DNA of 64,000 nt from Gammaproteobacteria bacterium. Lineage in GTDB: Bacteria > Pseudomonadota > Gammaproteobacteria > Eutrophobiales > Eutrophobiaceae. Within the stretch, counting starts at the first letter, position 1; every line of letters begins with the position of its first letter. Shown one piece after another: positions 1 to 39,576 of this stretch. The DNA is taken from the NCBI GenBank assembly GCA_963422205.2, contig CAXMWX010000009.1, forward strand, positions 1 to 64,000, read 5' to 3'. The position numbers and the translations under genes are program-made. The notes beneath the pieces were generated by a model, which saw only the letters and a list, made by a program, of their open reading frames with translations, did no database searches and was not told the DNA's origin.

Positions 1-1179
1 AGACTTATTTCCAATTTTTCAAATGCTGTTGTCACTGATGTTGGTGTGAAGGTATTGCAAAACAATGCTTTCTTTGCCCATCATGAAAACACACTTTTAG
101 CCATGCTTGGAGATAATGATCAAAACATTCGCGCTGTGGTGGTAGACAAAATTCTTCAAATCCGAATTCAGAATTCCCAACAAGAAGGTGAACGTCTAGA
201 ACGAACAGATCAAGTACGGATGTTTGTTTTTCCGAAGGTAAATGCTGGAGCCAAGGTATACTATGAAATGTCAGACTTACACCTTCCCAACATGCATGAA
301 CCACTAGCTACCACATGTATGTCAGATAACGCTTTGCAACAACTAGCCACAAACAAACTTGAGCTAAACTATCCGTGCCATAACCAAGCAGTGGAACGCC
401 ACATTCAGTTAGTAACAGAAGCTGCTACTGCCGTTGAAGGTTTCGATCGAAGAGACGGCACGATGAGACAGAAAATTAAGTCCAGAAGACTAATGCCATG
501 CTATTGACGCAAAAATAAACAATTTAATGTGTAACATTTTGCTGACTTTAAATGACAAACTGTTTGAACTTTTTTATGTGTGTGTAAAAATGATTTTCTT
601 ACTTTTGTGAAGTGAGGAGTGTATTTCACCAGTGTATTAATATTAAATTTGAGATCATTTTGGAAAGAAATTCCATTCCATTTCAAGAAATCATTTCCTG
701 AATGTCACGTAATATGAAGTTGCTTTTGTTTATTGCTGTTGTTTGTCAGTTTTAATGCAAAGCAAAATATTGAAAGTAAACATTTGTACTATCCTACGAA
801 TAGCCAGTGATGAATGAAATTTGAGAAAATAAGTTTTGTGCAAAAGTTAACCAAATTCAGAGAAATGTTGAACTTGAGCACTAAATTTTTGTAAAAGTAA
901 CATTTTCGCAAAAATAGTCATTTTATAGTACCTGTACACAAAAATGTTCTGTTAGAAGTAACATAAACTTGTACCTTCCGGTCATTTTGAGCCACTGATC
1001 CACTTTCTAGCATTAGTGGTTGCTGAGATATCGACATTTTGATAAAATGGCCGATTTAGGAAACTTTAAGGGGGATGTGCCTGCACCCCTTAAGTGGCAC
1101 CGACAAAAAATTGTGTTAAAATGTATTTTGGGGGTCAACTGCCAATTTTGGTACACTTGACTTTTTTCACTCCACCCTA
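1..1179 (+). mobile_element. 3' part of an animal hAT-superfamily (hATm-like) DNA transposon, truncated by the window start
   Basis: AT-rich. ORF 46-507 has FFAHHENTLLAML and YPCHNQAVERHIQLVTEA, recalled as typical of invertebrate hATm-like transposase C-termini. The element ends in CCACCCTA (1172-1179; reverse complement TAGGGTGG, a hAT-type terminus). Subterminal hairpin TTAAGGGG...CCCCTTAA at ~1066-1093. Confidence 0.6.
46..507 (+). CDS. C-terminal fragment of a eukaryotic transposase (probably degraded)
   Basis: 153-aa ORF with the PCHNQAVER motif; an in-frame TGA lies just upstream, so it is only a fragment. Confidence 0.55.
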   Translation: MKVLQNNAFFAHHENTLLAMLGDNDQNIRAVVVDKILQIRIQNSQQEGERLERTDQVRMFVFPKVNAGAKVYYEMSDLHLPNMHEPLATTCMSDNALQQLATNKLELNYPCHNQAVERHIQLVTEAATAVEGFDRRDGTMRQKIKSRRLMPCY

Positions 1180-1180
1180 G

Positions 1181-1291
1181 TCGCTACTCCTGCGATGTTT
1201 CCTCGAAGCTGTGTTTCCCAGGCGTTAAGCCGCGGAGATGGACCCCGCCACTCGTTAGACGCTTCAAATTCCGCGAGTATGATGAAGATGT
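1181..1291 (+). repeat. Probable 3' fragment of an invertebrate SINE
   Basis: GC-richer island (GCTGTGTTTCCCAGGCGTTAAGCCGCGGAGATGGACCCCGCCACTCGTTA...GCGAGTATGATGAAGAT) in AT-rich DNA, directly after the hAT terminus. Resembles an interspersed repeat I recall from tunicate assemblies; unverified. Confidence 0.35.
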
Positions 1292-1671
1292 GACAATGAC
1301 GGATGACGTTATCATCAAAATTTTTACAGCATAAGCGTTACATAAATTTCACCGTGATTAGGTCGTAACATACCTCTTCGCATTATGCTTGGGTCAAGTT
1401 CAACAGCTTGTTCGAATGGGGTTCCACCATGGATCGCCAACTCATATGTTCTAAACAACAGGAAAAGTTGATAAATTTCAACTTATGAAACCACATATTG
1501 GGAGAGAATTTTCTAATCAAACCCCAACATAGCAAATTAAGAGAAACTAACAATAGGAAAAAAAGAATTTTGAATGAAATTGTCCAATACGGTAAAAATT
1601 AACAAGAAAAAAGTTACTGCAAAAATGGCAGTAGTGCGAATAGAAATATCGACCCACAATTGCAGTACCGT

Positions 1672-1720
1672 AAAGCGGGACAGCGCTGTTTCGGGCTATT
1701 AGCCCTCATCAGCCGCCTTC
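1672..1720 (-). ncRNA. Minimal type I hammerhead ribozyme (inverted copy, canonical)
   Basis: Minus strand reads GAAGGCGG-CTGATGA-GGGCT AAT AGCCC-GAAA-CAGCGCTG-TC^CCGCTTT: core boxes, stem II, palindromic stem III, GUC cleavage triplet and stem I are all present. Confidence 0.88.
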
Positions 1721-2054
1721 AGGTAAGATACATTCATCTTCCAGATGGTACGTTCCAGATGCTCTACGGCACGTTTGACTGGAGTGCTTTGCACTGTTGG
1801 CGATGGAGAGCTGATATTTGCCTCCGACTCAACAAGAGGAAGTCGTCATGGCTTCCCGCCAGTAGGCCAGAAAGGACATTGCTTTTTTAGTTATTGCTCT
1901 TCACCCTGAACACGCAAAGAATTGACCAGCGCGATGGCGTAACCACACGAGTGGATACGTACCACAAAAGTTAAATTCTTTAAGATATATTTATCCAAAG
2001 AGATGAGTGATCCTGGCAAGATCATTCGTTTTGGAAGATCAATGTATTTAACCT

Positions 2055-2103
2055 GAGGGCGGCTGATGAGGGCTAATAGCCCGAAACAGCGCAGTTCCGC
2101 TCT
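2055..2103 (+). ncRNA. Type I hammerhead ribozyme, mutated copy
   Basis: GAGGGCGG-CTGATGA(2063-2069)-GGGCTAATAGCCC-GAAA-CAGCGCAG-TT^CCGCTCT. A-A mismatch in stem III; GUU triplet. Confidence 0.75.
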
Positions 2104-2393
2104 ACGGTACGTTTGACTGGAGTGCTTTGCACTGTTGGCGATGGAGAGCTGATATTTGCCTCCGACCCAACAAGAAGAAGTCGTCATGACTTCCCGCCAG
2201 TAGGCCAGAAAGGACATTGCTTTTTTAGTTATTGCTCTTCACCCTGAACACGCAAAGAATTGACCAGCGCGATGACGTAACCACACGCAGTGGATACGTA
2301 CCACAAAAGTTAAATTCATTAAGATATATTTATCCGAAGGGATGAGTGATCCTGACAAGATCATTCGTTCTGGAAGGTGAATGTATCGTACCT

Positions 2394-2441
2394 GAGGGCG
2401 GCTGATGAGGGCTAATAGCCCGAAACAGCATTGTCCCGCTG
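2394..2441 (+). ncRNA. Type I hammerhead ribozyme
   Basis: GAGGGCGG-CTGATGA(2402-2408)-GGGCTAATAGCCC-GAAA-CAGCATTG-TC^CCGCT. Stem III has a G-U pair; GUC triplet at 2433-2435. Confidence 0.85.
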
Positions 2442-3063
2442 TACGGTACGTTCCAGATGCTCTACGGTAGGTTTGTCTGGATTGCTATGCACTGTTGGCG
2501 ATGCAGAGCTGATATTTGCCTCCGACCCAACAAGAGGAAGTCTAGAAAGCTAGACCCAACAAAAGGAAGTCCTGGCCTAGTCCTTCCCGCCCGTAGGCCA
2601 GGAAAGACATTGCTTTTTTAGTTACCACAATTGCAGTGCATATAAAAGAATAAAACTAGTTACCAATTTCCTCAAAAACATTTGACTCGTTCGATTCCCG
2701 GCTAGAGCCGATCGCATTGGACGAATATTTTGGATATTTTGCTGATGAAAAGAGCGCAAGCTTTTTGCGATCTCTCTCTCACGACGCTTGCTTACCAACC
2801 AGTTTTAATCGTCAAACTCCTCCGAAAAATTTATTCAACTTACCGATCTCTAAAACTAATTATATTCAATCAATGTTTCAACATTACGCTCTCATGTAAA
2901 AGATCAGCGTTTGAAACGCAACACGGCGGTCAAAACCTATCGTTTGGCGAAATGTTTTTCAACGTTTGATCCGTTGTTAATACAAGCGTTGAACCAGAAA
3001 CGTACAGAGGCATGTTCGATTTTCATTCCTTAACTTTGAAATCGCAATCGGCAAAAATTAAAT

Positions 3064-3784
3064 CTACGGCGCGCACGCCTGAGGTCTTGTAACCAATGCC
3101 CGAATAGCCAATGCCGTTGATGGACTTGGTCACACCCTGCACCACCGAGGCAGAGCCCGGCTGCTCATTGACATTATCCTTGAAATCCCCTTTGCACAGG
3201 GCTTTTTTCTTAAAATACCCGTAGGTGCCGGAGACGGAGTTACGACCGTATAACTGAATCGGCCGCTCAGCCCATGCGCCGGTGAGACCTAACTGCCCCC
3301 AGCGGGTAATATCCTCGCCATGACCGCACTTGCGCGTGGCCGAGAAGACGGCATCCACTTCAGCGATGCTCATGCCCTGGATGGGGTTATCCTTGTTGAC
3401 GTACACCGCCAGCGCATCGATCGCAACCGCAACCGGGGTGGGCTTGTAGCCATGCCTGGCCTCAAAGCCGGCGATCTCCTTGTCCTTCATCTTGCGGCTC
3501 ATCGGCCCGAAATTCGAAGTGCCTTCGGTTAATGCCGGTGGGGCGGTTGATGAACCGGCGGCCTGAATCTGTACATTGACGTTCGGGTAGAACTTTTTAA
3601 ATTCCTCCGCCCACAATGTCATCAGATTAGCCAGCGTGTCAGAGCCCACACTGATGACATCGCCGGACACGCCGCTGACCTTCTGGTAATCCGCCAGTGC
3701 CGCATCGACCTCAACGGCAGTGACTGAGACAGGCAGCAGACCTGCCAGGGTGAGACTGATAAGTAACATTAGCTTGTTTTTCAT
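3064..3784 (-). pseudogene. pstS: Phosphate ABC transporter substrate-binding protein PstS, 3'-truncated at the junction
   Basis: Signal peptide plus [26 protein letters not shown] and GYSGIGY motifs. Homology stops after GVRAV, and the ORF runs into AT-rich DNA to a stop at 3023. Confidence 0.9.
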
Positions 3785-3849
3785 GCGGTTAATCCTCCGT
3801 TAAGGTTTGCACATCATCAAACTTGCACCGCACAGCCTGTCGCTGTTTG

Positions 3850-3878
3850 ATGACACAATTATTAACGGAATATGACGA
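3850..3878 (-). promoter_or_regulatory. Pho box upstream of pstS
   Basis: Minus-strand GTCAT / TTAAT / GTCAT half-sites at an exact 11-bp period (plus-strand starts 3872, 3861, 3850). Confidence 0.75.
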
Positions 3879-3887
3879 TTATAAGGA

Positions 3888-5219
3888 TCAGCGCACAGAG
3901 TTAAGCGGGCAGGTAGGCAGGGCAGCTGCCGGGGGCAGACCGGCAGGGCGGACAAGGCGCCTGGGCGGGAAAATACACGTGATCGTGGTGCCCTTGCCCA
4001 ACTCGCTGGAGATGACCAGTTCCGCCCCATGCTGTACCATCACATGCTTGACAATGGCCAGCCCCAGCCCGGTGCCGCCACGTTCCCTGGAACGTCCCTT
4101 GTCCACCCGGTAGAAGCGCTCGGTTACCCGCTTGATATGTTGCGGTGCAATCCCCTCACCGGTATCGGCCACCTCCACCACAGCCTGTGCCGCATCCTGA
4201 ACGTAGCCCCTGATGCGGATAACGCCACCTTGGGGCGTATACTGCACGGCATTGAAGATGATATTGGAGAATGCGCTGTATAAGTTGTCGTGATCACCGC
4301 GCACATACAGGGCCGGATCGGTCTCCAGGTAGAATATATGGTGTGAGTCAGCGCGCAAGGTCTGTGCTTCATGATGAATAAGCGAGAGCAACTCGCCCAC
4401 CTTGACCTGCTCATCGGCATCGTTGTAGCTGCTCTCCAGGCTGGATAATTTCAGCAAGTCCTCAATCAGGTTCTGCATCCGCCTGGCCTGCATCCGCATC
4501 TGCCTTATCTGCGGCTGCCAGGCGGGCGGGCAGTTGGCAGCTTCGCCATCGAAGGCCTCCAGATAACCTGAGATAACGGTCAGCGGCGTGCGTAATTCAT
4601 GTGAGGCGTTGGCAATGAAGTCTTTACGCATCCGGTTAATCCGTTGTATCTCCGTCACATCCCGTGCCACCAGCAACAAGCTGGACTCGCCATACCGGCT
4701 GACCCGAATCTCCAGCTTCAGCCCGGCCTGCAAGGGAGAGTCTATCACCAGCTCGGCATCGGCATTGCCAACATCAGCCAGATCAGGGTGGCGGATAAGA
4801 TGAGAGAGGCGCAGCCCCTTATCGCGGGGCGAGGCAATGCCAAGATAATCCCGGGCGCGCTGATTAGACCACTCAATACGGCCTTGCGTATCCATCACAA
4901 TCACCGCATCCGGCAGGGCCCGGGTGGCGGCCTGGAAACGGTTTAGAAAACCACTCAGCTTCTCTTCCCGCAGGCGATGATAAGCGCGCAGAGAATCAAT
5001 TTCCCGGACGATCTCATGGATAACCCCCGGCATGTCTGGCAGCTCATCGGCCAGGGCTGCATTTTTTAAGAAACGATATACCTTGCTGATCGCCCGATAT
5101 TGCCAGCACAGCAACCCCAGCAGCGCCAGGGACAGGCAGAGCAGAACTTGATTGAAAAGCAGGCCAAGCACTATGGCCAGCCCGGCCACCCAGCCTAATC
5201 GCAGCAGATCAGGGCACAT
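3888..5219 (-). CDS. phoR: Phosphate regulon sensor histidine kinase PhoR
   Basis: N-terminal TM helices, PAS domain, FIANASHELRTPLT H-box, RFYRVDKGRSRERGGTGLGLAIVKH; adjacent to phoB. Confidence 0.96.
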   Translation of the reverse strand: MCPDLLRLGWVAGLAIVLGLLFNQVLLCLSLALLGLLCWQYRAISKVYRFLKNAALADELPDMPGVIHEIVREIDSLRAYHRLREEKLSGFLNRFQAATRALPDAVIVMDTQGRIEWSNQRARDYLGIASPRDKGLRLSHLIRHPDLADVGNADAELVIDSPLQAGLKLEIRVSRYGESSLLLVARDVTEIQRINRMRKDFIANASHELRTPLTVISGYLEAFDGEAANCPPAWQPQIRQMRMQARRMQNLIEDLLKLSSLESSYNDADEQVKVGELLSLIHHEAQTLRADSHHIFYLETDPALYVRGDHDNLYSAFSNIIFNAVQYTPQGGVIRIRGYVQDAAQAVVEVADTGEGIAPQHIKRVTERFYRVDKGRSRERGGTGLGLAIVKHVMVQHGAELVISSELGKGTTITCIFPPRRLVRPAGLPPAAALPTCPLNSVR

Positions 5220-5230
5220 GGCAGGGCAGA

Positions 5231-5923
5231 TCAGTGCTTGCTGGAGAAACGATAGCCCACGCTTCGCACCGTCTGGATATGTTTATCGTAACCACAAGGC
5301 CGCAGGATTTTTCGTAATCGCCGAATATGCACATCCACGGTTCTCTCTTCCACGTAGACATTTTGTCCCCAGACCTGATCCAGAAGCTGGCCTCTGGAGT
5401 ATACCCGTTCCGGGTGTGTGATGAAGAAATGCAGCAGGCGAAACTCGGTCGGGCTGAGGGCAACGAGTTTCTCATCCGCCGTCACCCGAAAGGTCTCCGC
5501 ATCCAGCACCAGACCATCCATACTGGCCTTCGGCTTTGCCGTTGTCGGCCCGGTTCTGCGTAACAGCGCGCGGATCCTGGCCAGCAGCTCCCTGGTGGAG
5601 AATGGCTTGCTCATGTAGTCATCTGCACCTATGTCCAGCCCTTTGATCTTGTCCACTTCCTCGCCACGGGCTGTCAGCATAATGACGGGAATACTGCGGG
5701 TGTCAGGATCAGAGCGCATACGGCGGACATAATCCGCCCCGCTCATCCCCGGCAGCATCCAGTCAAGCAAGACCAGATCCGGCCTGGCAGTAGCGATGAT
5801 CGACCGTGCCTGTTCAGCATCAACGGCCTCACTCAGGCTGTACCCCTCCTTCATCAGGGTATAGCCCAACATCGCCCTGATCGGCTCTTCATCTTCAACA
5901 ATGAGGATTTTGCCTGTCATCAT
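5231..5923 (-). CDS. phoB: Phosphate regulon response regulator PhoB
   Basis: ILIVEDE, LLDWMLPG, EERTVDVHIRRLRK, IQTVRSVGYRFS. Probable start at MMTGK (5923). Confidence 0.97.
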   Translation of the reverse strand: MMTGKILIVEDEEPIRAMLGYTLMKEGYSLSEAVDAEQARSIIATARPDLVLLDWMLPGMSGADYVRRMRSDPDTRSIPVIMLTARGEEVDKIKGLDIGADDYMSKPFSTRELLARIRALLRRTGPTTAKPKASMDGLVLDAETFRVTADEKLVALSPTEFRLLHFFITHPERVYSRGQLLDQVWGQNVYVEERTVDVHIRRLRKILRPCGYDKHIQTVRSVGYRFSSKH

Positions 5924-5967
5924 AATGGGACCCTGTTCTTGGCATGGGAACATTACACAGCAGAAAT

Positions 5968-5985
5968 ATTACAAGCAAATGACAT
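5968..5985 (-). promoter_or_regulatory. Pho box upstream of phoB (autoregulation)
   Basis: Minus strand TGTCATttgctTGTAAT, with half-sites 11 bp apart. Confidence 0.75.
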
Positions 5986-6197
5986 GCTTGATAAGCCTTG
6001 CAGTCGGATTTTCAAGACAACACCATCAAAGCCTTTCGAGTTGGCAATGGAAAACGGCAATAATGCCCTGATACTAAGAAAAATCAGGTAAAATAGCTGC
6101 CCAATCCAGTCTTGATGCGGTTGATCTTCACCGCAAAAGGGTTGCAACGGGCTCTCTTTTTAACTAGCCTTACCAGTTAAGTTTAACGAGTATCGGA

Positions 6198-6577
6198 ATG
6201 CGGAATGTAATGATTATTTTTAGCAAATTGCTACAGGGCATAAAGCGGAATGACGGGGAAGATCATCATGTTCTGGTGCGATTTATGGCGGCTTTTTTGG
6301 CAGTTTCATATTTCACGGCGCCTTGCTTACCATATCGTTTGCCTCACTTTCATTTTCAACATTGCCAGGCGATTTATTTCTTGATGCTGAACTTTCTCTC
6401 ATGCTGGGTCTTGGCTTGATGGGCATCATCAGCTTCCTGTTCGGATTGATCGTTACCCCACGAAGAGGGCAGGATTCTCTGCCTTATCATTTTTTGCTTG
6501 GGGTTTCTCTACCAGCGATGGCCTATGCCCTGGCCAGCTTCATATTACAGATTGCGCCAATTAGGCCGGGATCTTAA
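6198..6577 (+). pseudogene. Small multi-pass membrane protein, frameshifted in a T6 run
   Basis: ORFs 6198-6419 and 6323-6577 join into one hydrophobic protein (…RFMAAFFGSFIFHGALLTISF…) if one T is added at 6293-6298. Confidence 0.45.
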
Positions 6578-6580
6578 AAA

Positions 6581-7168
6581 ATGCACCCGTCGTTACTGAG
6601 AACACTACTAACGACAGCAGTTATCTCCGGTTTTGCCGGTCTGCCCGCCTCTTCTGCAGAGGACACAGGCAGGAAAATATTCTGTGTGGGTGGTCATGCC
6701 TGGCAAGCTGTTGATGTTGATAAGCAGACACGTGCCTATGAAGCATCATTGGCAATAAAATTTATAATCGGGGCCAAGGCCTTATTCGGCAGCGAGGATG
6801 TTTTAAAGCTCTCAAAACTCACATTTGTTGAAGCCCGAGAGGCAGATGCACCTAAAACTCAACAAGCGACAACCCCACAGGAGAATACGCTCGTTTTAAT
6901 CGATGACGATAAAGAAACAGCCACGTACCGCGCAATAGTGGGAGAGTTTCTGGGGAGAGAGGCTGATTTGATTCCATCGTCAAACTGCCCCAGACCTGAT
7001 TATGTCATCGCTCTAAACAAAGCAGCCCATGACGATACCCACCAATTTATCTTGAATGTGGAATCAGAAAAAATGAGGGACTTTATCCTGGGGCCCCGGG
7101 ACCCCGGAGTCAGGGGCCGCTGGCTCATTTTATCTGACACGTGGCTCGCCCCAGGGACGTTGAGTTAA
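6581..7168 (+). CDS. Hypothetical exported protein
   Basis: 195 aa with a Sec-like signal peptide (…FAGLPASSA); no family recognised. Confidence 0.65.
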   Translation: MHPSLLRTLLTTAVISGFAGLPASSAEDTGRKIFCVGGHAWQAVDVDKQTRAYEASLAIKFIIGAKALFGSEDVLKLSKLTFVEAREADAPKTQQATTPQENTLVLIDDDKETATYRAIVGEFLGREADLIPSSNCPRPDYVIALNKAAHDDTHQFILNVESEKMRDFILGPRDPGVRGRWLILSDTWLAPGTLS

Positions 7169-7323
7169 TCTGATACTTTGTTCGCTTTTAAATCCCCACC
7201 TGCACATACCCCACTCACACCATCTGTAACGTTAATCCAACGCTTGCCTCTGCTATACCACACCGATACCGAGCTTAAAAACATGGCGTGATTAGCCATT
7301 TATCGCCTGACCCCTAACCCATG

Positions 7324-7385
7324 CTGTCATGCCGCCAGCGGACAGGCTTAACGCAGCTGTCATATTATGTTCATGTCCACTTAAC
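7324..7385 (+). promoter_or_regulatory. Tandem Pho boxes upstream of the porin gene
   Basis: GTCAT 7326, TTAAC 7348, GTCAT 7359, TTCAT 7370 and TTAAC 7381 all fall on an 11-bp register. Confidence 0.8.
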
Positions 7386-7506
7386 AGTGCCTGCCTACTG
7401 TCTGCCACGCACGAAAACTTTTATACCTTATAAAAATTGCTGTACCAGGCGGGCAGTGCGCCAGCAGTCAATTTTTCTACAAATCCAACTCTCAAGGAGA
7501 AGAACT

Positions 7507-8871
7507 GTGTTTAGAACAATGACGAAGTCCATTTACAGCCTGCTTGTTGCGATGGCCTTTACCCTTCTGCCTGGCGCCCCGGCATACGCCGTCAACAATG
7601 CCATGCTGGACCTGCTCAAGGTCCTTCGAGATAAGGGCACCCTGTCAGCCGCCGAATATGAGATGCTGATCAATGCCGCCCGGGCCGATGGCGAGCAGGT
7701 CGAAGGCAAGGTCAATGAGATGCAGGCCAGTCTCGATAAAAAGACCAAAAGTCTGCCCACGATCAACACCAGGGGCAAGCTGGAGATCAAGCAGGGCGAT
7801 AATAAATTCCGCATCGGCGGGCGTATCATGTATGACTATGCCTTTGTCAACGAGGATGCTGGCCGCGATGGAGAGAAAACTGAGCTTTTGACTGGACATG
7901 AATTTCGCCGTGCCCGGATTTTCTTCAGCGGGACGCTGTGGAAGCTGTGGGATTTCAAGTTCCAGACTGACTTTGCGGGTAACGAGGTGGACAACAAGGA
8001 ATGGACGCTGGCCTACAAGGGCTTTAAGGACACGAAAATTGTTATCGGCAGCGACAAGGAGCCGTTCAGCCTGGAAGAGATGAACAGCTCCAAGTACATC
8101 ACCTTCATGGAGCGCGCCCTGCCCAATGATCTGGCGCCTGGACGTAATACTGGTATACAGATAACACATCATCGCAATAATTTCACTATCGCTGGCGGCC
8201 TGTTCGGTGATGGTTTTGATACGCAGGACAGCGAGCCCGCCTGGTCGTTGACCGGTCGTGCAACGTATGCGCCTGTTGCCGAGGAAGACAAGGTGTTGCA
8301 CCTTGGCCTGGCCGGCAGTTACCGCAAGCTGGACAGCGATAATGAAGTCAGGTTTCGGGCGCGTCCGGAAATCCATACCAGCGCCCAGCGGCTGGTGAAC
8401 ACCGGTAATCAGGATGCTAACAGTTACTCGCTGCTCGGTCTGGAGGCGGCCGGTGTCTATGGCCCGTTCAGCCTGCAAGGCGAATGGATACGCGCCAGCT
8501 TGAGTGGTGGCGGCGGTTCAGAGCCGACCTATAACGGTTACTATGTCTATGGCAGCTACTATCTGACTGGCGAGAGCCGCCGTTACAGCACCAAGAGCGG
8601 TACATTCAAGCAGACCAGGGTACGCCAGCCTTTGGGCAAGGGTGGCTTCGGCGCCTGGGAGTTGGGGCTGCGCTTCAGCGGCCTTGACCTGACCGACAAG
8701 GACGTGCTTGGCGGCGAGGAGAAGAACCTGACCGTGGGGCTGAACTGGTATCCGAATAACAACGTGCGCTTCATGGCGAATTACGTACAGGTGCTTGATC
8801 TGGACAACGGCAGTGAGAACGATGGCGCCGAGCCTTCCGCCTTCATGCTGCGCTCGCAACTGTATTTTTAG
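7507..8871 (+). CDS. Phosphate-selective porin, OprO/OprP family
   Basis: EFRRARI, KEPFSLEEMNSSKYITFMER, GAWELGLRFS, TVGLNWYPN and a C-terminal F. RBS AGGAGA precedes GTG 7507 (alternative ATG 7519). Confidence 0.93.
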   Translation: MFRTMTKSIYSLLVAMAFTLLPGAPAYAVNNAMLDLLKVLRDKGTLSAAEYEMLINAARADGEQVEGKVNEMQASLDKKTKSLPTINTRGKLEIKQGDNKFRIGGRIMYDYAFVNEDAGRDGEKTELLTGHEFRRARIFFSGTLWKLWDFKFQTDFAGNEVDNKEWTLAYKGFKDTKIVIGSDKEPFSLEEMNSSKYITFMERALPNDLAPGRNTGIQITHHRNNFTIAGGLFGDGFDTQDSEPAWSLTGRATYAPVAEEDKVLHLGLAGSYRKLDSDNEVRFRARPEIHTSAQRLVNTGNQDANSYSLLGLEAAGVYGPFSLQGEWIRASLSGGGGSEPTYNGYYVYGSYYLTGESRRYSTKSGTFKQTRVRQPLGKGGFGAWELGLRFSGLDLTDKDVLGGEEKNLTVGLNWYPNNNVRFMANYVQVLDLDNGSENDGAEPSAFMLRSQLYF

Positions 8872-9017: not shown

Positions 9018-9857
9018 ATGTATCTATCTGTTGCCAGAGAAACAACCCTCGTGTGTATTGTGTTCACAGCCTGCTTCCTGCCTGGTACTGCTTCAGCCGG
9101 AGATCATGACAAAAAAACCGTCGAGTCAGATGAGTCAGATGTTTGTGTTGGCTTTGCCGGCCAAACGCCACGGGATATTGATTCTGTTGCCGGTGAGAAT
9201 GCGGTGAAATTTTCTCTGGCGCCTCCTTCCGAAGAGATGAATCTTTGCAATATTCATTTTCACGCCCATGCTGAACATAAAGCCAAAGACTTTGCGATTT
9301 ATGCCGGTGATGGTGAGCAGGGTTATGGAGGTTATCAGTGTGCCATGTCCAAAGAGTTGACCGAAGCTGAACTGGTTTTGCCCGAGGATAAAATATGTAA
9401 GGGCTTGAATCCAGGTGACACCATTGAGGTACACTGGGTGTATACTAGCTGCGATGTTGGTCCCGGGCCGGGCTTGGGTTCCTGCTTGTCTGATGCCTGC
9501 GCCAACCCTGATCTCCGTGTAGAGACCCAGGTCTTCACCCTGGTTAATGATCCTGATGCGCTGGACTTTAGAGACATGGATTATGCTAAAGGCAAGGTCA
9601 ATGGTTATCATCAGCCTAAAATCATTCCCTCCAATACCGGTGAGCCTGTTCAGTTTATGGGTTCGACAACAGGTCCGAGTTATACCGAGCAGGTTTGTTC
9701 TCCGTTACAGGTTACCTGGCGTGTTCGGCCTCAGTGTGCCAAGCTGGATATCAACTCTGTCGGCGCCTGGTGTGAGGGCAATGTTTTTAATGAAGATCAT
9801 GCACATCAGGTTCGTCGTCTTGTTACTGATCCGAGACTTTTAGCACCTATTGATTAG
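9018..9857 (+). CDS. Exported delta-class carbonic anhydrase (TWCA1-like)
   Basis: Signal peptide; GQTPRDID, LCNIHFHAHAEHK, TIEVHWVYTSC, GSTTGPSY, CSPLQVTW and FNEDHAH motifs. Confidence 0.88.
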   Translation: MYLSVARETTLVCIVFTACFLPGTASAGDHDKKTVESDESDVCVGFAGQTPRDIDSVAGENAVKFSLAPPSEEMNLCNIHFHAHAEHKAKDFAIYAGDGEQGYGGYQCAMSKELTEAELVLPEDKICKGLNPGDTIEVHWVYTSCDVGPGPGLGSCLSDACANPDLRVETQVFTLVNDPDALDFRDMDYAKGKVNGYHQPKIIPSNTGEPVQFMGSTTGPSYTEQVCSPLQVTWRVRPQCAKLDINSVGAWCEGNVFNEDHAHQVRRLVTDPRLLAPID

Positions 9858-21453: not shown

Positions 21454-22230
21454 TTATCTGAACCTTGTAAAATAATCATCAATTTCCTCCCTCATTTCAA
21501 TGCCTACTCGCTCAAAGCACCTGAGCAAACTATCATATGCTCCTTCCCCTCCAAGAAAATTCCAGAACTCTTCCGCAACTTTCAGTTCTTTTTCCAGATC
21601 AAGCATACCGGCAATTGTCTATCTGCTATAAGGTTTGGGTTCGTATGGGTTATACGGAATTGCAATAAGCGTATTAATATTTGTGTCTGGATTTTCTAAC
21701 AGCGCTGTTGCTGTCCACTCTAAAAGGGTTCGTTTAAACTCTTTAAACCCACCTTTATTCGGTTTTGCAGTTTTTATATCAATCAAGTAAATCTCTCCTT
21801 TGTCATCTTCAAGGTAAACATCTACTCTTGTTGGTTTAACTGTGCGAATTTCACCTTCCTGGCAAACTTCACGAATTATTTCTATCTCCTCTTGCTTGTC
21901 CGGCCTTCGATCAGCAGAGGTCAGACCATCCATAATTTTCTGAATTTCATATTGTGCCTGTGTGCTAATCTGGGAGCCTGACCTGGTCTGGAGTTTTGCG
22001 GATTTAAACCGAGTTAATGCCAGTGAAACCGCAACCGGTTCAAAGATACTTGTTCCAAAACTGGTATTTAATGAATGGATAAATGCATAAAGTGCAAGCC
22101 TGTCTTTGCCAAGCAGCCTGGTATGGAAAGGCATTACTGCCGGTTCCGGATTATAGGTTTTAAATCTATTTAGCAGGCTTTGTTTGATCGTTTCCTCAAC
22201 TGACTTTATCTGCTCTTTAGTCAGGGCCAT
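21454..22230 (-). pseudogene. TdeIII/MjaII-family type II restriction endonuclease with an internal nonsense codon
   Basis: MPFHTRLLGKDRLALYAFIHSLNTSFG, DIKTAKPN, AIPYNPYEP. TAG at 21619-21621, after which the frame continues (TIAGMLDLEKELKVAEEFWNFLGGEG…) to TAA at 21454. Confidence 0.88.
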
Positions 22231-23840
22231 TATTTTTCTTTTAAATGAAATATGATTTCCGCATAAGCCGATTTGTTTTTTTCCGTCCTGTTTAAAACCG
22301 GTCTTTTGTACTGATTTACGATCTGCATTTCCGACTTTTCTGCAATGATCGGATATAAACTGTATTTATCGTTTGCCACAAGGAAAATATCATAATCCTC
22401 CTGCAAGTATTGTTTAACGTTATTGAGCACATCGGTAATGCCCTGGGTATAGTCGCTCCTTGCTTTTTTACTCTGCCCCTTGAAAAGAGGGCCTATTTCC
22501 AATTTATCATTACGCTTAAAACCGAATAAATCATAAGCATAGGCGTGCTGTTCGTGGTAATCAATCAGTCCGACATAGGGGGGACTGGAAAATATACCTT
22601 TTATTTTTTGCTTTTTTACCAACTTCCCAAATGCAGGGTTCTTTAGGGACAGAGCGTCAAAAATATTAATATTTCGAGCATCTCCCTGTAGGCATTTTTG
22701 ATAGGTTTCTGTTCTTAATAGATTAAATTCCGAAAAACGTTTTATCATATCTTTAGTGTAACGTTCCCACCAGGACAGTATAGAAAAAAGAGGCTTACAA
22801 ATTTTACCGTGTTTACTGCAGTAATAAGTCTTGGTGATCGGCTCTTTCAGTGTGGCCAGGTCGGCATGTGTTGTTGCTTTACATGAGCGAATTGTTCTAC
22901 TTAAAATGATGGCAATAGCTTTTTTTGTAGTTGGGTTTTTAACGGTTTTTAATTGCTCAAAAGCAAAATCAAGTTCCTTTTTTACCGGCTCAAGGTACCA
23001 TTTTTCAAGAAAAGTGACTGCATTGTCTTGTTTGATTTTCAATTGATATTTTTTTTGCAAACTATCGAAGATGGCACCGAATTCTTTTTCTTTTGTCGGT
23101 GTATATTTCCGTTCAATAATCTCTCTTTGCCGAATCTTTATTTTGTATTCGGGTGACGGGAAGTATTCTTTGTTAAAAATATTCAGTTCCTCAAGCAATT
23201 CATTTTCAAATTTGGCATTGGCGTTATGTGCAATAAAGTCCTTTAAAGCGGATGTAATTCTTTGCGTTTCATCGTATAAGTTCTGAAAATCAACCTTGCC
23301 AATTTTTACATTGGCAATCAACGTATTGAATGCCGAGATATCTATTCCAACGGCGTGTATTCCAAGTTCATTTGCTTGCACCATCGTTGTGCCGCTGCCT
23401 GAAAACGGGTCTAGTATAATATCTCCTTTTTTAAAATAGGTTTGGGTTTTGAAATTGTCCGTGTGGTCGTCAATAAAATACTCGACAAGCTGCGGAATAA
23501 ACTTTCCCTTATACAGGTGGAGTCTATGGATGTGTTTTGTAGTATCTTTTTCTTTTAAGTTATCAAATGACAGTGCCCAGTTGAGGTCTTCTCCAAGTTT
23601 TTCTCGCCAGTTGACTTCTCTTTGGCCGGTAAAACTTTCATAGTAGTTAATCAAATCAGCCTTGCTGATGACGGTGGTTCCGTTTTTGCCATATTTCGGA
23701 ATTTTACCGTACTGTATTAAATACGATATGTTTGAAGTGGTTACATTTCTTCTCAGATGACTACTCGCCCATAGGCTGGCTTCTTTGGTCGTTAGTAATT
23801 CCATGTCTTCAGTTGTCATAAAAAAGTTATTCGGTGTCAT
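22230..23840 (-). CDS. N4-cytosine DNA methyltransferase (M.MjaII-like) with N-terminal HTH-like region
   Basis: DPFSGSGTT motif I precedes SSPPY motif IV; coupled to the TdeIII-family gene; low GC. Confidence 0.88.
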   Translation of the reverse strand: MTPNNFFMTTEDMELLTTKEASLWASSHLRRNVTTSNISYLIQYGKIPKYGKNGTTVISKADLINYYESFTGQREVNWREKLGEDLNWALSFDNLKEKDTTKHIHRLHLYKGKFIPQLVEYFIDDHTDNFKTQTYFKKGDIILDPFSGSGTTMVQANELGIHAVGIDISAFNTLIANVKIGKVDFQNLYDETQRITSALKDFIAHNANAKFENELLEELNIFNKEYFPSPEYKIKIRQREIIERKYTPTKEKEFGAIFDSLQKKYQLKIKQDNAVTFLEKWYLEPVKKELDFAFEQLKTVKNPTTKKAIAIILSRTIRSCKATTHADLATLKEPITKTYYCSKHGKICKPLFSILSWWERYTKDMIKRFSEFNLLRTETYQKCLQGDARNINIFDALSLKNPAFGKLVKKQKIKGIFSSPPYVGLIDYHEQHAYAYDLFGFKRNDKLEIGPLFKGQSKKARSDYTQGITDVLNNVKQYLQEDYDIFLVANDKYSLYPIIAEKSEMQIVNQYKRPVLNRTEKNKSAYAEIIFHLKEK

Positions 23841-31463: not shown

Positions 31464-32546
31464 TTATCTCCCGGACTTCCTCCGGTTATCTTCCCGGCAA
31501 AGCATCTGGCAGTTGTCCGCTTCCGTTTTGCCACCTTCGCACCAGGGCGTGATGTGATCGGCTTCCATTTGCTCCAGTTCAAAATGCTCATCACACACAG
31601 CGCAAATGCCTTTTTGTCTTTCGTAGGCTTCTCGTTTCTGGCTTGCACTGAAAGAACGGATATTAAGATGCTTTTCCTTGCCGGTTAAAAGATATTCATA
31701 AATACCTTTCTTGGCAGTGACATCTTCGTCTTCCATTAGTTTGGCAATTTCTTCTGCCAATTTTTTAGAGTCAAATTTTTGGCCTTGAAACTGGTTGTAA
31801 TACAGACCCCAAGGCAGCCCTTTCATTTCTTTACGATACTTCGGAAACACCGCCTGCACCCAATTAATCACCGCTTGAAAATAAAGCCACAATTCACTGG
31901 CATTGGGTTCATGCTGGTGTTTGCCCATATAGTCTTCTATCTTATCTCCGCTTAGCCATTTTATCGCCGTCTCAAGGTATTCCTGACGAATGGGCGTGCC
32001 ACTTAAATAATTGCTTCCCAGCCCGTAAGCAGGACAACCCGTTTTGCTGAAATAACGCTTGGCATCGGTCGCCCAGGAACCGGCATACACCGCATTCCTC
32101 AATTCCTGATCGGTCAGTTTCTCGCCCGCGATATTGATGGTCTCGAACCATTCCAGTCTTTCGCTGTCTGTGCCGCTACACAAATACACCGTGAGCCTGT
32201 AGTTGAGAATTTGCGCCTGCTGATCGTCTTGCAGATTATGAAAATAAAGGCCCTGAAAAGAAAAATCCCCTTTTGTATATTGGCAGATTGAAATCGTTCG
32301 CTGCTGCCCGTCTATGATTTCAAAATTGCCATCTTTTCGCACCGCCCAGTACATCACATTCAGTGGAAAATCTTTTTTAACGGTATCAATCACCGCGTCC
32401 CTTTGTTTCTCTTTATAGATAAATTCTCTTTGATAGGGTGGGCGAATATCCAGCCTGCCGCCGTAGCCGGTCACGCCGCTTTCCTGATTATCTTGATAGC
32501 CCTCCGTCAATTCGCGAACGGTGATTTCTTTGAGTTCTATCTTCAT
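31464..32546 (-). CDS. DUF262 (ParB/Srx-like, GmrSD N-terminal-like) plus HNH endonuclease
   Basis: PPYQREF, IIDGQQRT, FETIN; C-terminal CAVC…ADHITPW…NCQMLC…N. Confidence 0.9.
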   Translation of the reverse strand: MKIELKEITVRELTEGYQDNQESGVTGYGGRLDIRPPYQREFIYKEKQRDAVIDTVKKDFPLNVMYWAVRKDGNFEIIDGQQRTISICQYTKGDFSFQGLYFHNLQDDQQAQILNYRLTVYLCSGTDSERLEWFETINIAGEKLTDQELRNAVYAGSWATDAKRYFSKTGCPAYGLGSNYLSGTPIRQEYLETAIKWLSGDKIEDYMGKHQHEPNASELWLYFQAVINWVQAVFPKYRKEMKGLPWGLYYNQFQGQKFDSKKLAEEIAKLMEDEDVTAKKGIYEYLLTGKEKHLNIRSFSASQKREAYERQKGICAVCDEHFELEQMEADHITPWCEGGKTEADNCQMLCREDNRRKSGR

Positions 32547-33112
32547 TTTTTGTTCTTGATGGTGTGTTTGATTTTGATCATGGCGAGATTGAGTTCAATC
32601 GTGGTTTCGCTGCGGGTATCACCGGCAAATTCCTGATTGAGAATATCGCCGATCAACTCCCCACTTCTGGCAATGAGTTTTTCCTGTTCGGATTTGTCTT
32701 TTTCTATCGCCAGAGATTTTGCCACCTTGCTGAATTCCCGCACCTTCGCAAAGGTTTCAATAATCTGCAAGGCGGCTTGCGTGGCCTGCTTTGATTTCAG
32801 GATAGTCGCCAGCATGTACAAGCCTTTTTCGGTAAAGGCTTTGGGAAGTTGCGGGGAGAATTTCAGCTTCTCAAGGTGGTGGAAATTTTCCACCACCTCC
32901 TGTTTTTCCCTTGAGTTGAGTTCGAAGATATATCCCTGCGGAAATTTATCTATATTATTTTTAACCGCCTGGTTGACATCTCGGGTTTGCACGCTGTAGA
33001 TAGCCGCCACATCGCTGTCCAGAATGACTTGATGCCCGCGCAGTTCAATAATAAGTGATGTTATATCGTTTAATATATTCGCTTTATTCAGGTTTTTATC
33101 AGGCTCTTTCAT
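32543..33112 (-). CDS. ORF6N (KilA-N-like) DNA-binding domain protein
   Basis: LRGHQVILDSDVAAIY, VNQAVKNN..KFP, AFTEKGLYMLATILKS. Confidence 0.9.
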   Translation of the reverse strand: MKEPDKNLNKANILNDITSLIIELRGHQVILDSDVAAIYSVQTRDVNQAVKNNIDKFPQGYIFELNSREKQEVVENFHHLEKLKFSPQLPKAFTEKGLYMLATILKSKQATQAALQIIETFAKVREFSKVAKSLAIEKDKSEQEKLIARSGELIGDILNQEFAGDTRSETTIELNLAMIKIKHTIKNKK

Positions 33113-33163
33113 GGTTTTCTATTAAGACTCTCAAATAAGGAACATCGGCAACTCAACTACTCA

Positions 33164-33754
33164 TCATGGCTGGGAGGGTGTAATTCCTCTATTGAGAAAA
33201 TCAACCAGTGGCCTTAATGCTTCCGAGTCTAAATTCCATATTTCCGAATCTTTATAGAAAAAATTTTCTTTTTTCAACTCTTTTTTCTGTTCATTGGTTT
33301 TCGGAAAGGCGTCAACATAGGCGTATATTTTGGACTTTCTAATGGGAAGAGCATAGGTTTTTTCGTATTTTTTCAGACAGTCTTCATATTGCTGAAAGCA
33401 ATCCAAAACCCGCCTGTGTTTATCATTTGCGATACACTCAAGTAACGTTTCAAGGTCTCCGCTCAATGAATTGTCTGGAAGCAGAAAAATATCAAAATTC
33501 AGATTATTATTAGCCTTAAACTTTTCGATATATGCTCTTCTTTCTTGGTAATCATCGTCGGCATCAAAAATGATTTTCACGCTGTGACCTTCGTCATTCA
33601 AGCGCTTTATTGTGGGTGTATTTTTCTCAAGGTTATTCCAACCTCCTACTTCTGTTATCTCAAAGTCAGTGGCTTTGTTTTTATCAAGTCTTACTTCAAT
33701 AAGATCTTCAAGAAACCTCAAATCGCTTTTTCCTTCAACCAACAGCTTGACCAT
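33164..33754 (-). CDS. TOPRIM-fold protein (DUF3226-like)
   Basis: LLVEGKSD, GG, IIFDADD, G.LETLL; follows an ABC ATPase. Confidence 0.75.
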   Translation of the reverse strand: MVKLLVEGKSDLRFLEDLIEVRLDKNKATDFEITEVGGWNNLEKNTPTIKRLNDEGHSVKIIFDADDDYQERRAYIEKFKANNNLNFDIFLLPDNSLSGDLETLLECIANDKHRRVLDCFQQYEDCLKKYEKTYALPIRKSKIYAYVDAFPKTNEQKKELKKENFFYKDSEIWNLDSEALRPLVDFLNRGITPSQP

Positions 33755-33757
33755 GCT

Positions 33758-34873
33758 TTATCTCAATTCAATTTTTTGATCAATGGCATGTTCAAAACTT
33801 TCAAAGTCATACTTATAGGATTTATGTTCCCCGCCAATATCCCTCAATGTATAAACCCTTACCTGTGGTTGAAAATCTTTATTTTTCTCCTGCTCCAACG
33901 CTACTTTTAAAGCCCGAAGCGTCTCGATATTGTGAGTGCTGATAAATAACTGCACATTCAATTCCTGTGAGAGCCGAATCAGGCTGTCCCATAAATCAAC
34001 CAGCGTAGAGAAATGAATACCATTTTCGAGTTCATCTATCAGCACAATGCCGCCTCTGGAGTTATACATAGCCAATAGCAGCGATAAATACCGCCTTACG
34101 CCATCGCCAGATAAATTGAGCGGGATAAGCTGCTGCATACCAACATCCGCATAAATCATTTGATTAGTTCCGAGAGAAATGCTGGTGATTCTTGAATCAA
34201 TCGCCTTTAACATCACAATCAGATTGTCATGCTGTTTATTGACAATCAAATGCTCCAATTCTTTTTGCAGATTTTGGGAAAGAGGTGCCTTGGGCGTCAC
34301 ATAGACACAACGTACACTCTCAGCATAATCACGAGGCGTGACCAGGTTAAAACCAGCAGCAGCTCTATTAAAAGTTAATTTACTTTCGATTTTTCTTTGT
34401 TCTGAATGCTTTTTCTTAATGATTGCATCCAGCACCAATTCATTAATTTCATCTTCTTTTATGGCAGAATCATAGGAAAAATTTTTAACATCAGCCCGCA
34501 CTTTCTCCGCTTGAGCCTTTCTTGTTATTGTGTTTTCAGATGAAGAATAAGGCGAAATGGAGACGGCTCTAAAATCTTCGTCTGTGCCGTTATTCTGCTC
34601 GCCGGACGATGCCCTGATTTTGATGGTATTGTTAAAATCAAGATTGTGGAAAACAAAACCCAAGTCATTTGCTTCACTGAGAAAGAAATCTCTGAAGTTG
34701 TGTATTGTGAGTATGAGTTCAGGATTACTCGCCCCAAAAAGAAGGAATAAAGCCTCCAGCACTGTGGTTTTGGCCGAGTTATTTTTGCCAAGCAAAAGAT
34801 TGATCCTGCCTAAATCTTCGATGTTCAGGTGCCTGATGCTTCTGAAATTCTCTATGTCAATATTTTGGTACAT
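33758..34873 (-). CDS. Soluble ABC-type ATPase (AAA_15/AAA_21-like)
   Basis: IENFRSI, variant Walker A GKNNSAKT, LSGDG signature, LIDELENGIH Walker B/D-loop, ISTHN. Confidence 0.9.
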   Translation of the reverse strand: MYQNIDIENFRSIRHLNIEDLGRINLLLGKNNSAKTTVLEALFLLFGASNPELILTIHNFRDFFLSEANDLGFVFHNLDFNNTIKIRASSGEQNNGTDEDFRAVSISPYSSSENTITRKAQAEKVRADVKNFSYDSAIKEDEINELVLDAIIKKKHSEQRKIESKLTFNRAAAGFNLVTPRDYAESVRCVYVTPKAPLSQNLQKELEHLIVNKQHDNLIVMLKAIDSRITSISLGTNQMIYADVGMQQLIPLNLSGDGVRRYLSLLLAMYNSRGGIVLIDELENGIHFSTLVDLWDSLIRLSQELNVQLFISTHNIETLRALKVALEQEKNKDFQPQVRVYTLRDIGGEHKSYKYDFESFEHAIDQKIELR

Positions 34874-35004
34874 AATATTTTTGAGTTGTAAATTTCGGTT
34901 TTTTGGTCGATAGCTCTATCACAATTATATCGTAATTTTTACACTCACCATCTTTTGTTTTTGAGGATCATTCGGGCAGATATCCAGCATGGGGCCGTAG
35001 GCGG

Positions 35005-36087
35005 TCACGCCGCCCTCACGCGGTGGCGGATGAGAATGCGGGCATAAGGAACATCCACAACTCCGTTTGTAATCATATACAAGTCTCCGTCTACTGCACC
35101 TCTTTTTTGGATTTCTTTTCTATACTTTTTGTGTTCTAGTTTATAGGGTCTTACTCCAATCTCTATTCCAGAATTAGATATGCCTAAGCCAATTATCTCA
35201 AACTGCTCCGGGTTGTATTTATCCAGGAAAGTAATCGGTACGCCCATTGCCCCATCCCAGTCCATGGGAATGTCTTTGACCTTATCGACGTTAATCGCAT
35301 CGTAGTTGTCATATCGGGGATATTCTTCGGGGGTGTAGGTTTTGTATAAAATCAGATCCTCGTGGCGTTTGACATGGTCGAGGTTGGTGAACCAGATACT
35401 TTGGGAACGACCTTTCACAACTCCATCTACAATCTTATACGAACTCCCCTGTTTCCCTTTGTCCTGCAATTCTTTTGCGTAATCTTTCGGTACATCAAAC
35501 AACAAGTCTCTGCTCATTGGCGTGTTGCCAACCCACAACCTATTTTCCTTTATGAGCGGGAAAATTTCTTTATAGGTGATGGCATTTTTATTTCCGATAA
35601 CGACAAACTTCTTCTCATATTCCATCAACTGCGCCACATATTCCCGAAACAGCGAAAAAGGCGGGTTGGTGACCACAATATCGGCCTGCTGCAAGAGGGC
35701 AATCGCCTCAGCGCTCCTGAAGTCGCCATCGCCTTGCAAGTGATGAATGCCGATTTCTTCGGGGTCGGGCACGCGGTTAGCGTTTTCATCGCCCTCGTAT
35801 TCAAGATAGATCGCCTTTTCAGCATCGTGCCGGCTGAACAAATCCATATCCTGGTTCTTGTAACAGGTGGTGATGAGTTTTTTCAGTCCCAGCGCTTCAA
35901 ATCCATAGGAAAAATAATGAAAGAAATTACTGATGCGCGGATCATCGCAGTTGCAATAGACCACCTTGCCCTTGAAGTGCTTTTTATAGTGCCGCAATTC
36001 AGCTTCTATATCGGCCAACTGCGTATAGAACTCGTCTTTTTTACCTACCTTGGCCCGGTGCAGGCTCCGGTTAAGTTTATCCGGCAT
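35005..36087 (-). CDS. Adenine-specific DNA methyltransferase, EcoRI family
   Basis: DEFYT, VYCNCDDP, GDGDFRS, VVTNPPFSLFREY, MGVPITFLDKYNP. Confidence 0.93.
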   Translation of the reverse strand: MPDKLNRSLHRAKVGKKDEFYTQLADIEAELRHYKKHFKGKVVYCNCDDPRISNFFHYFSYGFEALGLKKLITTCYKNQDMDLFSRHDAEKAIYLEYEGDENANRVPDPEEIGIHHLQGDGDFRSAEAIALLQQADIVVTNPPFSLFREYVAQLMEYEKKFVVIGNKNAITYKEIFPLIKENRLWVGNTPMSRDLLFDVPKDYAKELQDKGKQGSSYKIVDGVVKGRSQSIWFTNLDHVKRHEDLILYKTYTPEEYPRYDNYDAINVDKVKDIPMDWDGAMGVPITFLDKYNPEQFEIIGLGISNSGIEIGVRPYKLEHKKYRKEIQKRGAVDGDLYMITNGVVDVPYARILIRHRVRAA

Positions 36088-39532: not shown

Positions 39533-39576
39533 GCGAGATGAGAAGCGAGATGAGAAGCGAGATGAGAAGCGAGATG
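39533..39576 (+). repeat. 12-bp tandem repeat (GCGAGATGAGAA)x3.7 spanning the nadA start
   Basis: Perfect copies at 39533, 39545 and 39557, partial at 39569; each contains an in-frame ATG. Confidence 0.95.

Follow-up and report, generated by a model that had tools for sequence, protein, structure and literature searches.

Whether an abrupt change from eukaryote-like to bacterial DNA inside a single gene marks a piece of symbiont chromosome inserted into the genome of its host, or an error in the reconstruction of the sequence, is the question raised by the first kilobases of the DNA analysed here, a window of 64,000 nt. The initial annotation of this window left two readings open, namely an integrated bacterial segment or a host/symbiont chimera rated at least as likely. 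It also tacitly assumed that the window had been taken from an invertebrate assembly, a premise which has to be reversed: the window is positions 1-64000 of C11, a contig of 326,720 nt belonging to a bacterial bin (G000; 14 contigs, 2,988,056 nt, 97.97% complete and 0.12% contaminated according to marker genes), and the foreign DNA is confined to the terminal 3,064 nt of this contig, its bacterial part amounting to 323.7 kb.

A break within pstS

Base composition and gene density change together at the junction. The GC content is 0.406 in 1-3064 and 0.549 in 3065-64000, in 100-nt windows it rises from 0.36 (2966-3065) to 0.62 (3066-3165), and the maximum-likelihood change point, scanned over 1-8000, falls after base 3066, while the share of the sequence taken up by ORFs of 100 aa or more is 0.28 to the left of the junction and 0.95 to its right. 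The observed/expected CpG ratio does not separate the two sides, being 0.95 and 0.90 in the host-like parts and 0.93 in the bacterial parts.

The gene in which the change occurs is found on the minus strand as an ORF of 253 aa (3023-3784), composed of the first 240 codons of pstS, encoding the phosphate ABC transporter substrate-binding protein (3065-3784, 3' part missing), and of a false C-terminal tail of 13 codons and a stop contributed by host-like DNA (3023-3064). The ORF scores 217.7 bits against TIGR02136 (cut-off 206.6), covering profile positions 3-227 of 295 only. In an alignment with 10 relatives, homology extends up to the residues GVRAV and is lost immediately after them, where PL or AL follows in the relatives, and the 13-residue tail has no counterpart in any of the 10. 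The relatives have PstS proteins of 309-330 aa in total, and about 82 residues are missing here, with 240 of some 322 codons being present on C11. The codon for the final V of GVRAV occupies 3065-3067, and the break can therefore be placed at 3064|3065, only 1-2 nt from the position of about 3063 given by the initial annotation, whose description of an abrupt compositional switch within pstS, and of a gene cut after GVRAV and deprived of its C-terminal part, is borne out by the GC step, the ORF cover and the PstS alignment. The GC change point, the break in the protein and the ends of the contig matches discussed below together define the feature at 3064-3065, which we regard as an artificial junction.

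The join itself is seamless: nothing has been inserted, and the two sides share 1 nt (3065) at most. Neither an N-gap nor an IS end had been noticed at this site, and this proved correct on a wider scale: not a single N base is present across all contigs of the bin, and no transposase-like ORF adjoins the break, whose neighbours are phoR, phoB and a phosphate porin gene.

These neighbours form an intact Pho regulon neighbourhood, consisting of phoR (3888-5219, minus strand; TIGR02966, 392.3 bits, cut-off 334.2), phoB (5231-5953, minus strand; TIGR02154, 331.3 bits, cut-off 296.2) and a gene for a phosphate-selective porin O/P (7321-8871, plus strand; PF07396, 230.1 bits). The truncated PstS is 73-85% identical to the PstS proteins encoded at 80 loci of uncultured Gammaproteobacteria, and in both sequence and gene order (phoB-phoR-pstS-pstC-pstA-pstB-phoU) the cluster resembles these related, marine-type loci. 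It differs from them in that pstS breaks off on C11 after codon 240 of about 322, and this truncation is an effect of assembly and not a property of the gene. Searches of the bin with the truncated protein and with TIGR02136 (E up to 1) returned the C11 copy alone and no 3' end of pstS; the missing piece lies in an assembly gap.

Two other ORFs of this neighbourhood can be mentioned. An ORF of 195 aa with a signal-peptide-like start (6581-7168, plus strand) is located between phoB and the porin gene and has no Pfam or NCBIfam match, and an ORF of 279 aa beside the porin gene (9018-9857, plus strand) matches PF10563 (CA_like, delta carbonic anhydrase) with 249.9 bits. The delta class of carbonic anhydrases is known mainly from diatoms, and a bacterial copy may merit attention.

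Nothing in 3065-64000, whether gene decay or inserted host repeats, points to a stay in the genome of a eukaryote: the ORF cover is high, as given above, and host repeats are absent. Three islands of low GC (0.37-0.46) in this part contain bacterial restriction and defence genes and are not eukaryotic insertions. The first (21,619-23,840) encodes a TdeIII endonuclease and an N6/N4 methylase, the second (31,464-36,087) a GmrSD-HNH protein, ORF6N, DUF3226 with an AAA_15 ATPase, and an EcoRI-type methylase, and the third (41,471-43,321) a NERD-UvrD helicase.

Eukaryote-like DNA on two contigs of the bin

The left part of the window (1-3064) is considered host-like, that is eukaryote-like, DNA wrongly joined to the start of C11, on the grounds of its GC content, ORF cover, shared repeats and depth. 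It begins with the 3' end of a multi-copy ORF of no known family (1-507, plus strand, 168 aa), open at the contig start, for which 12 longer relatives of 380-766 aa were found on large contigs with 42-88% identity, the best of them (86-88%) on contigs of 0.6-0.9 Mb. Neither this ORF nor five of its longer relatives have a Pfam or NCBIfam match, and the ORF is possibly part of a mobile element that has yet to be characterised. A dispersed repeat of about 110 nt (approximately 1181-1293) has five copies with 79-83% identity at 712-790 kb of another contig of the bin, C7, and the interval 1171-1404 reaches a summed k-mer depth of 478,931 in X1, one of the public runs introduced below. At 1665-2624 a tandem unit of about 338 nt is present in approximately 2.8 copies with inverted 80-nt arms, the region being made up of four direct repeat families (D1-D4, spacing 338-393) and two inverted pairs (I1, I2). 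This unit was found by the pairwise repeat search alone, Tandem Repeats Finder reporting nothing in 1-3300; it is also present at C7:810,033-810,988 with 84-86% identity, and its region has summed k-mer depths of 10^5 in both X1 and X2.

The initial annotation called this DNA transposon-filled, a description which is plausible for the left 3 kb and is favoured by the tandem unit, the dispersed repeat and the multi-copy ORF, although no transposase or reverse transcriptase ORF is present within 1-3064. Within the bin, the repeats of the left part recur only in the last 128 kb of C7, host repeats being otherwise limited to C11:1-3062.

It is on C7 that a second join between bacterial and eukaryote-like DNA was identified, at approximately C7:708,117 and within secD, followed by 128,198 nt of gene-poor DNA of low GC (C7:708,118-836,315; 0.37-0.39) containing 14 ORFs of at least 150 aa, as against 187 in an equal length of bacterial DNA. 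The secD ORF at this junction has 458 aa, with relatives matched from its first residue, and in 12 out of 12 relatives SecD is encoded by ORFs of 569-697 aa. Neither the 5' end of secD (SecD-TM1, PF13721) nor yajC (TIGR00739) was found anywhere in the bin. The contig carrying tgt was also considered as the continuation of C7 and rejected, tgt being located at C12:36,800-37,879, 3.1 kb from the contig end and not abutting secD.

The tail of C7 carries a reverse transcriptase ORF as well as a complete IFT80 (intraflagellar transport) gene in the form of one uninterrupted ORF of 774 aa (C7:783,226-785,547). When compared with the PDB, the product of this ORF matched 8bd7 and 5n4a (both IFT80, E 1.1e-209), the remaining matches being generic WD40 proteins, and its nearest Atlas clusters are commonest in Arthropoda and Chordata. 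The left part of the window is called animal because the C7 segment shares its repeats and carries these two ORFs, and both low-GC pieces, the C11 tip and the C7 tail, come from one eukaryotic genome, most likely that of an animal.

Animal IFT80 genes usually have many exons, and one with a single coding exon would be unusual; the C7 copy may be a retrogene. A splice-acceptor-like motif (a pyrimidine run and CAG) is located just upstream of the ORF and a donor-like GTATGT just after its stop codon, and a tRNA-like stretch is found about 250 nt downstream.

Continuation of the two sides in public runs

How each side of the junction continues was assessed with Logan k-mer contigs, not raw reads, from three public runs (X1, X2 and X3), which contain the stretch with word shares of 0.83, 0.81 and 0.28, respectively, and were compared with positions 1-7000. 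The three runs come from one study and are not independent populations, and the assembly itself may derive from among them; k-mer contigs drop rare variants. A host contig of 915 nt in X1 and X2 (494 nt in X3) matches 2606-3065 with no substitutions and 1 indel and then continues past 3065 for 454 nt (33 nt in X3) which are unlike the window. The bacterial side is represented by a contig of 44,754 nt (X1, X2), which matches 3065-7000 without any difference and extends in the other direction past 3065 for 8,256 nt, these being likewise unlike the window. No k-mer contig spans 3065 among the longest matches listed of approximately 25,600 from X1-X3, although a short bridging contig of low depth may exist among the others. 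The absence of spanning sequence, proposed by the initial annotation as evidence against integration, was to this extent observed at the level of contigs.

The depths of the two sides vary independently. Unique host pieces have depths of 30-47 in X1 (41 for the host contig), 26-26.7 in X2 and 2-2.9 in X3, and the bacterial contig has depths of 578.4, 9.02 and 0 in the same runs, corresponding to bacterial/host ratios of about 14, 0.35 and 0. A coverage step, likewise suggested as an argument against integration, is thus present, its direction differing between runs (578/41, 9/26 and 0/2). This bears directly on the reading that a bacterial segment is fixed in the host genome: the bacterial depth would then have to equal or exceed that of the host in every run, whereas in X2 it is about one third of the host depth and in X3 there is none.

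Absence of pstCAB from the window had also been noted, correctly, and the remainder of the operon is found at the start of another contig of the bin, C4. The best matches to the pstC model in the bin are at C4:1192-2136 and C4:3000-3797, and C4 starts inside a long-form pstC (ORF 1-2160, 720 aa; TIGR02138, 184.1 bits, cut-off 196.45), after which come pstA (242.1 bits), pstB (406.8 bits) and phoU (235.4 bits) in the same orientation. Among the 80 related loci, pstC was located on the same strand within 1.5 kb after pstS in 56 of the 74 with room downstream, and phoR before pstS in 52 of the 72 with room upstream. When C11 is read backwards from 3065 and then C4 is added, the conserved pho-pst gene order is obtained.

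The distance between these two contigs can be estimated from the ends of the k-mer contigs, which are located where 31-mers cease to be unique. To the right of the junction, the first repeated 31-mer of C11 starts at 39,533, so that unique 31-mers extend as far as 39,562, precisely where the bacterial contig ends on its right (7000 + 32,562 = 39,562). The corresponding limit of unique 31-mers on C4 is 7,704, and if the left end of the bacterial contig is placed there, the gap between C11:3065 and C4:1 is 8,256 - 7,704 = 552 nt; the equivalent gap in four near relatives is 478, 514, 555 and 559 nt. Judging from these lengths, the 8,256-nt run-on very likely represents pstS'-pstC-pstA-pstB-phoU, and continuation into the pst operon, the third observation that had been put forward as speaking against integration, is thereby matched by a run-on which fits C4 after a gap of 552 nt. 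The living bacterium would then have this operon in intact form. The stretches of repeated 31-mers, at C4:7,675-8,651 and, much smaller, at C11:39,533-39,577, mark repeat elements which break k-mer assemblies.

Origin of the join and consequences for the genome record

The two sides of the junction are different molecules in the sampled DNA. They continue differently, their depths are uncoupled, and the missing operon is located on C4 at a fitting distance, which makes it highly probable that 3064|3065 is a host-symbiont assembly chimera and not bacterial DNA integrated in an animal genome. Of the two readings first offered, it is the chimera that is now strongly supported, and integration that is left unsupported. 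Joins at two unrelated housekeeping genes in one bin also fit a random artefact process. One point that counts against a chimera is that 552 nt were dropped from the assembly exactly here.

Under this explanation, DNA of the host animal would have been joined to the symbiont chromosome, whether within a single sequenced molecule or during assembly, leaving a 3-kb tip on the bacterial contig. The most likely mechanism would be blunt ligation of fragments during the preparation of the long-read library, or the reading of two molecules as a single one. The assembler would then have used such a chimeric read for the tip of C11 and, in C7, to reach a host contig of 128 kb; alternatively, the assembler itself may have made a false edge. 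In the living bacterium phoB-phoR-pstS would run unbroken into pstC-pstA-pstB-phoU, now the start of C4, and the approximately 552 nt lost between the two contigs would comprise the last 82 or so codons of pstS, a spacer and the first 40-60 or so codons of the long-form pstC.

Chimeric reads are given in PMC8495745 as making up 0.02-3.17% of reads depending on the type of long-read library, being commoner in ligation-based preparations, and are named there as a hazard for the validation of lateral gene transfer. The junction resembles the long-read chimeras of mixed host and microbial DNA in being a seamless join at a random site inside a gene and at the tip of a contig, with sides which differ in depth and each of which continues normally elsewhere. 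It differs from them in being known from contigs, and in that the foreign part of C7, at 128 kb, would be a bridged host contig and not the tip of a read. A further parallel is the debate on the tardigrade Hypsibius dujardini, in which bacterial and animal DNA in one assembly were told apart by means of coverage and independent data (10.1101/033464, PMC4824900); in the present case it is animal DNA that contaminates a bacterial bin, and it is joined within contigs rather than forming separate ones.

A real integration that is rare or not fixed, being somatic or limited to one individual or a minority of cells, could have been caught by the long reads of the assembly and yet be too rare for the k-mer contigs, which cannot show the absence of rare variants. 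In the interval 3043-3276 there are indeed about 1.0-1.5 depth units beyond the two listed contigs in X1 and X2, a small excess that would suit such an event, but similar excesses are present elsewhere, e.g., at 3979-4212. Positive evidence for it was not found, a single rare molecule would be indistinguishable from a library chimera, and the second join at the unrelated secD is easier to reconcile with a random artefact than with two rare integrations, each of them selected in assembly, making this reading improbable. A more specific version, in which several hundred kilobases were inserted very recently and without fixation in the individual, or a few of the cells, used for long-read sequencing, with the secD join of C7 as its other boundary, or as a boundary of a sister event, is in our view decidedly improbable.

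Fixation of the bacterial DNA in the germline would mean that at least 324 kb of symbiont chromosome reside in the nuclear genome of the host, with 3064|3065 as a true boundary. The seamless join, free of N and of adapter-like filler, and the second host-bacterium join in the same bin both speak for such an event, and large symbiont-to-host transfers are known in Wolbachia hosts (PMC8495745). The closest analogue, if the integration were real, would be the large Wolbachia-to-host nuclear transfers such as that of Drosophila ananassae chromosome 4 (PMC8495745, citing Klasson et al. 2014; PMC5429809), with hundreds of kilobases located beside host repeats. Those inserts have host copy number and spanning support, whereas here the bacterial side is below the host depth in X2 (9.02 vs 26) and absent in X3 (0 vs 2). 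Moreover, both the host contig (+454 nt) and the bacterial contig (+8,256 nt) pass unbroken through the site, and C4 opens with the rest of the operon, at a distance that fits. The segment of more than 60 kb which had been taken as potentially integrated DNA is part of a 326,720-nt contig from a bacterial genome that is 97.97% complete and has its genes intact. Fixed integration is accordingly very improbable. The converse event, the uptake of host DNA into the symbiont chromosome with interruption of pstS, would agree with a contig which is bacterial over 323.7 kb and whose foreign piece is small, but can be dismissed as extremely improbable, given that the bacterial contig of depth 578 passes the site into 8,256 nt fitting pstS'-pstCAB, that the host piece has a host-like and not a bacterial depth, and that pstS, no second gene of its family having been found in the bin, would be inactivated.

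In conclusion, the junction very probably being a chimera of host and symbiont sequences, the join has no biological function or meaning, and its value is one of curation and data quality. The bin is used as a species representative, yet carries eukaryote-like DNA totalling about 131 kb (3,064 nt on C11 and 128,198 nt on C7), or approximately 4.4% of its 2,988,056 nt, which the marker-based contamination estimate of 0.12% misses because marker-gene checks are blind to eukaryotic DNA. If left uncorrected, the record will contain a falsely truncated PstS with a foreign tail of 13 residues, a SecD falsely truncated at its N-terminus, an apparent loss of yajC, and IFT80 and a reverse transcriptase filed under a bacterium, all of which invite mistaken reports of lost genes or of gene transfer between domains. 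It would be corrected by trimming C11:1-3064 and approximately C7:708,118-836,315, and by recording C11 and C4 as adjacent, some 552 nt apart.
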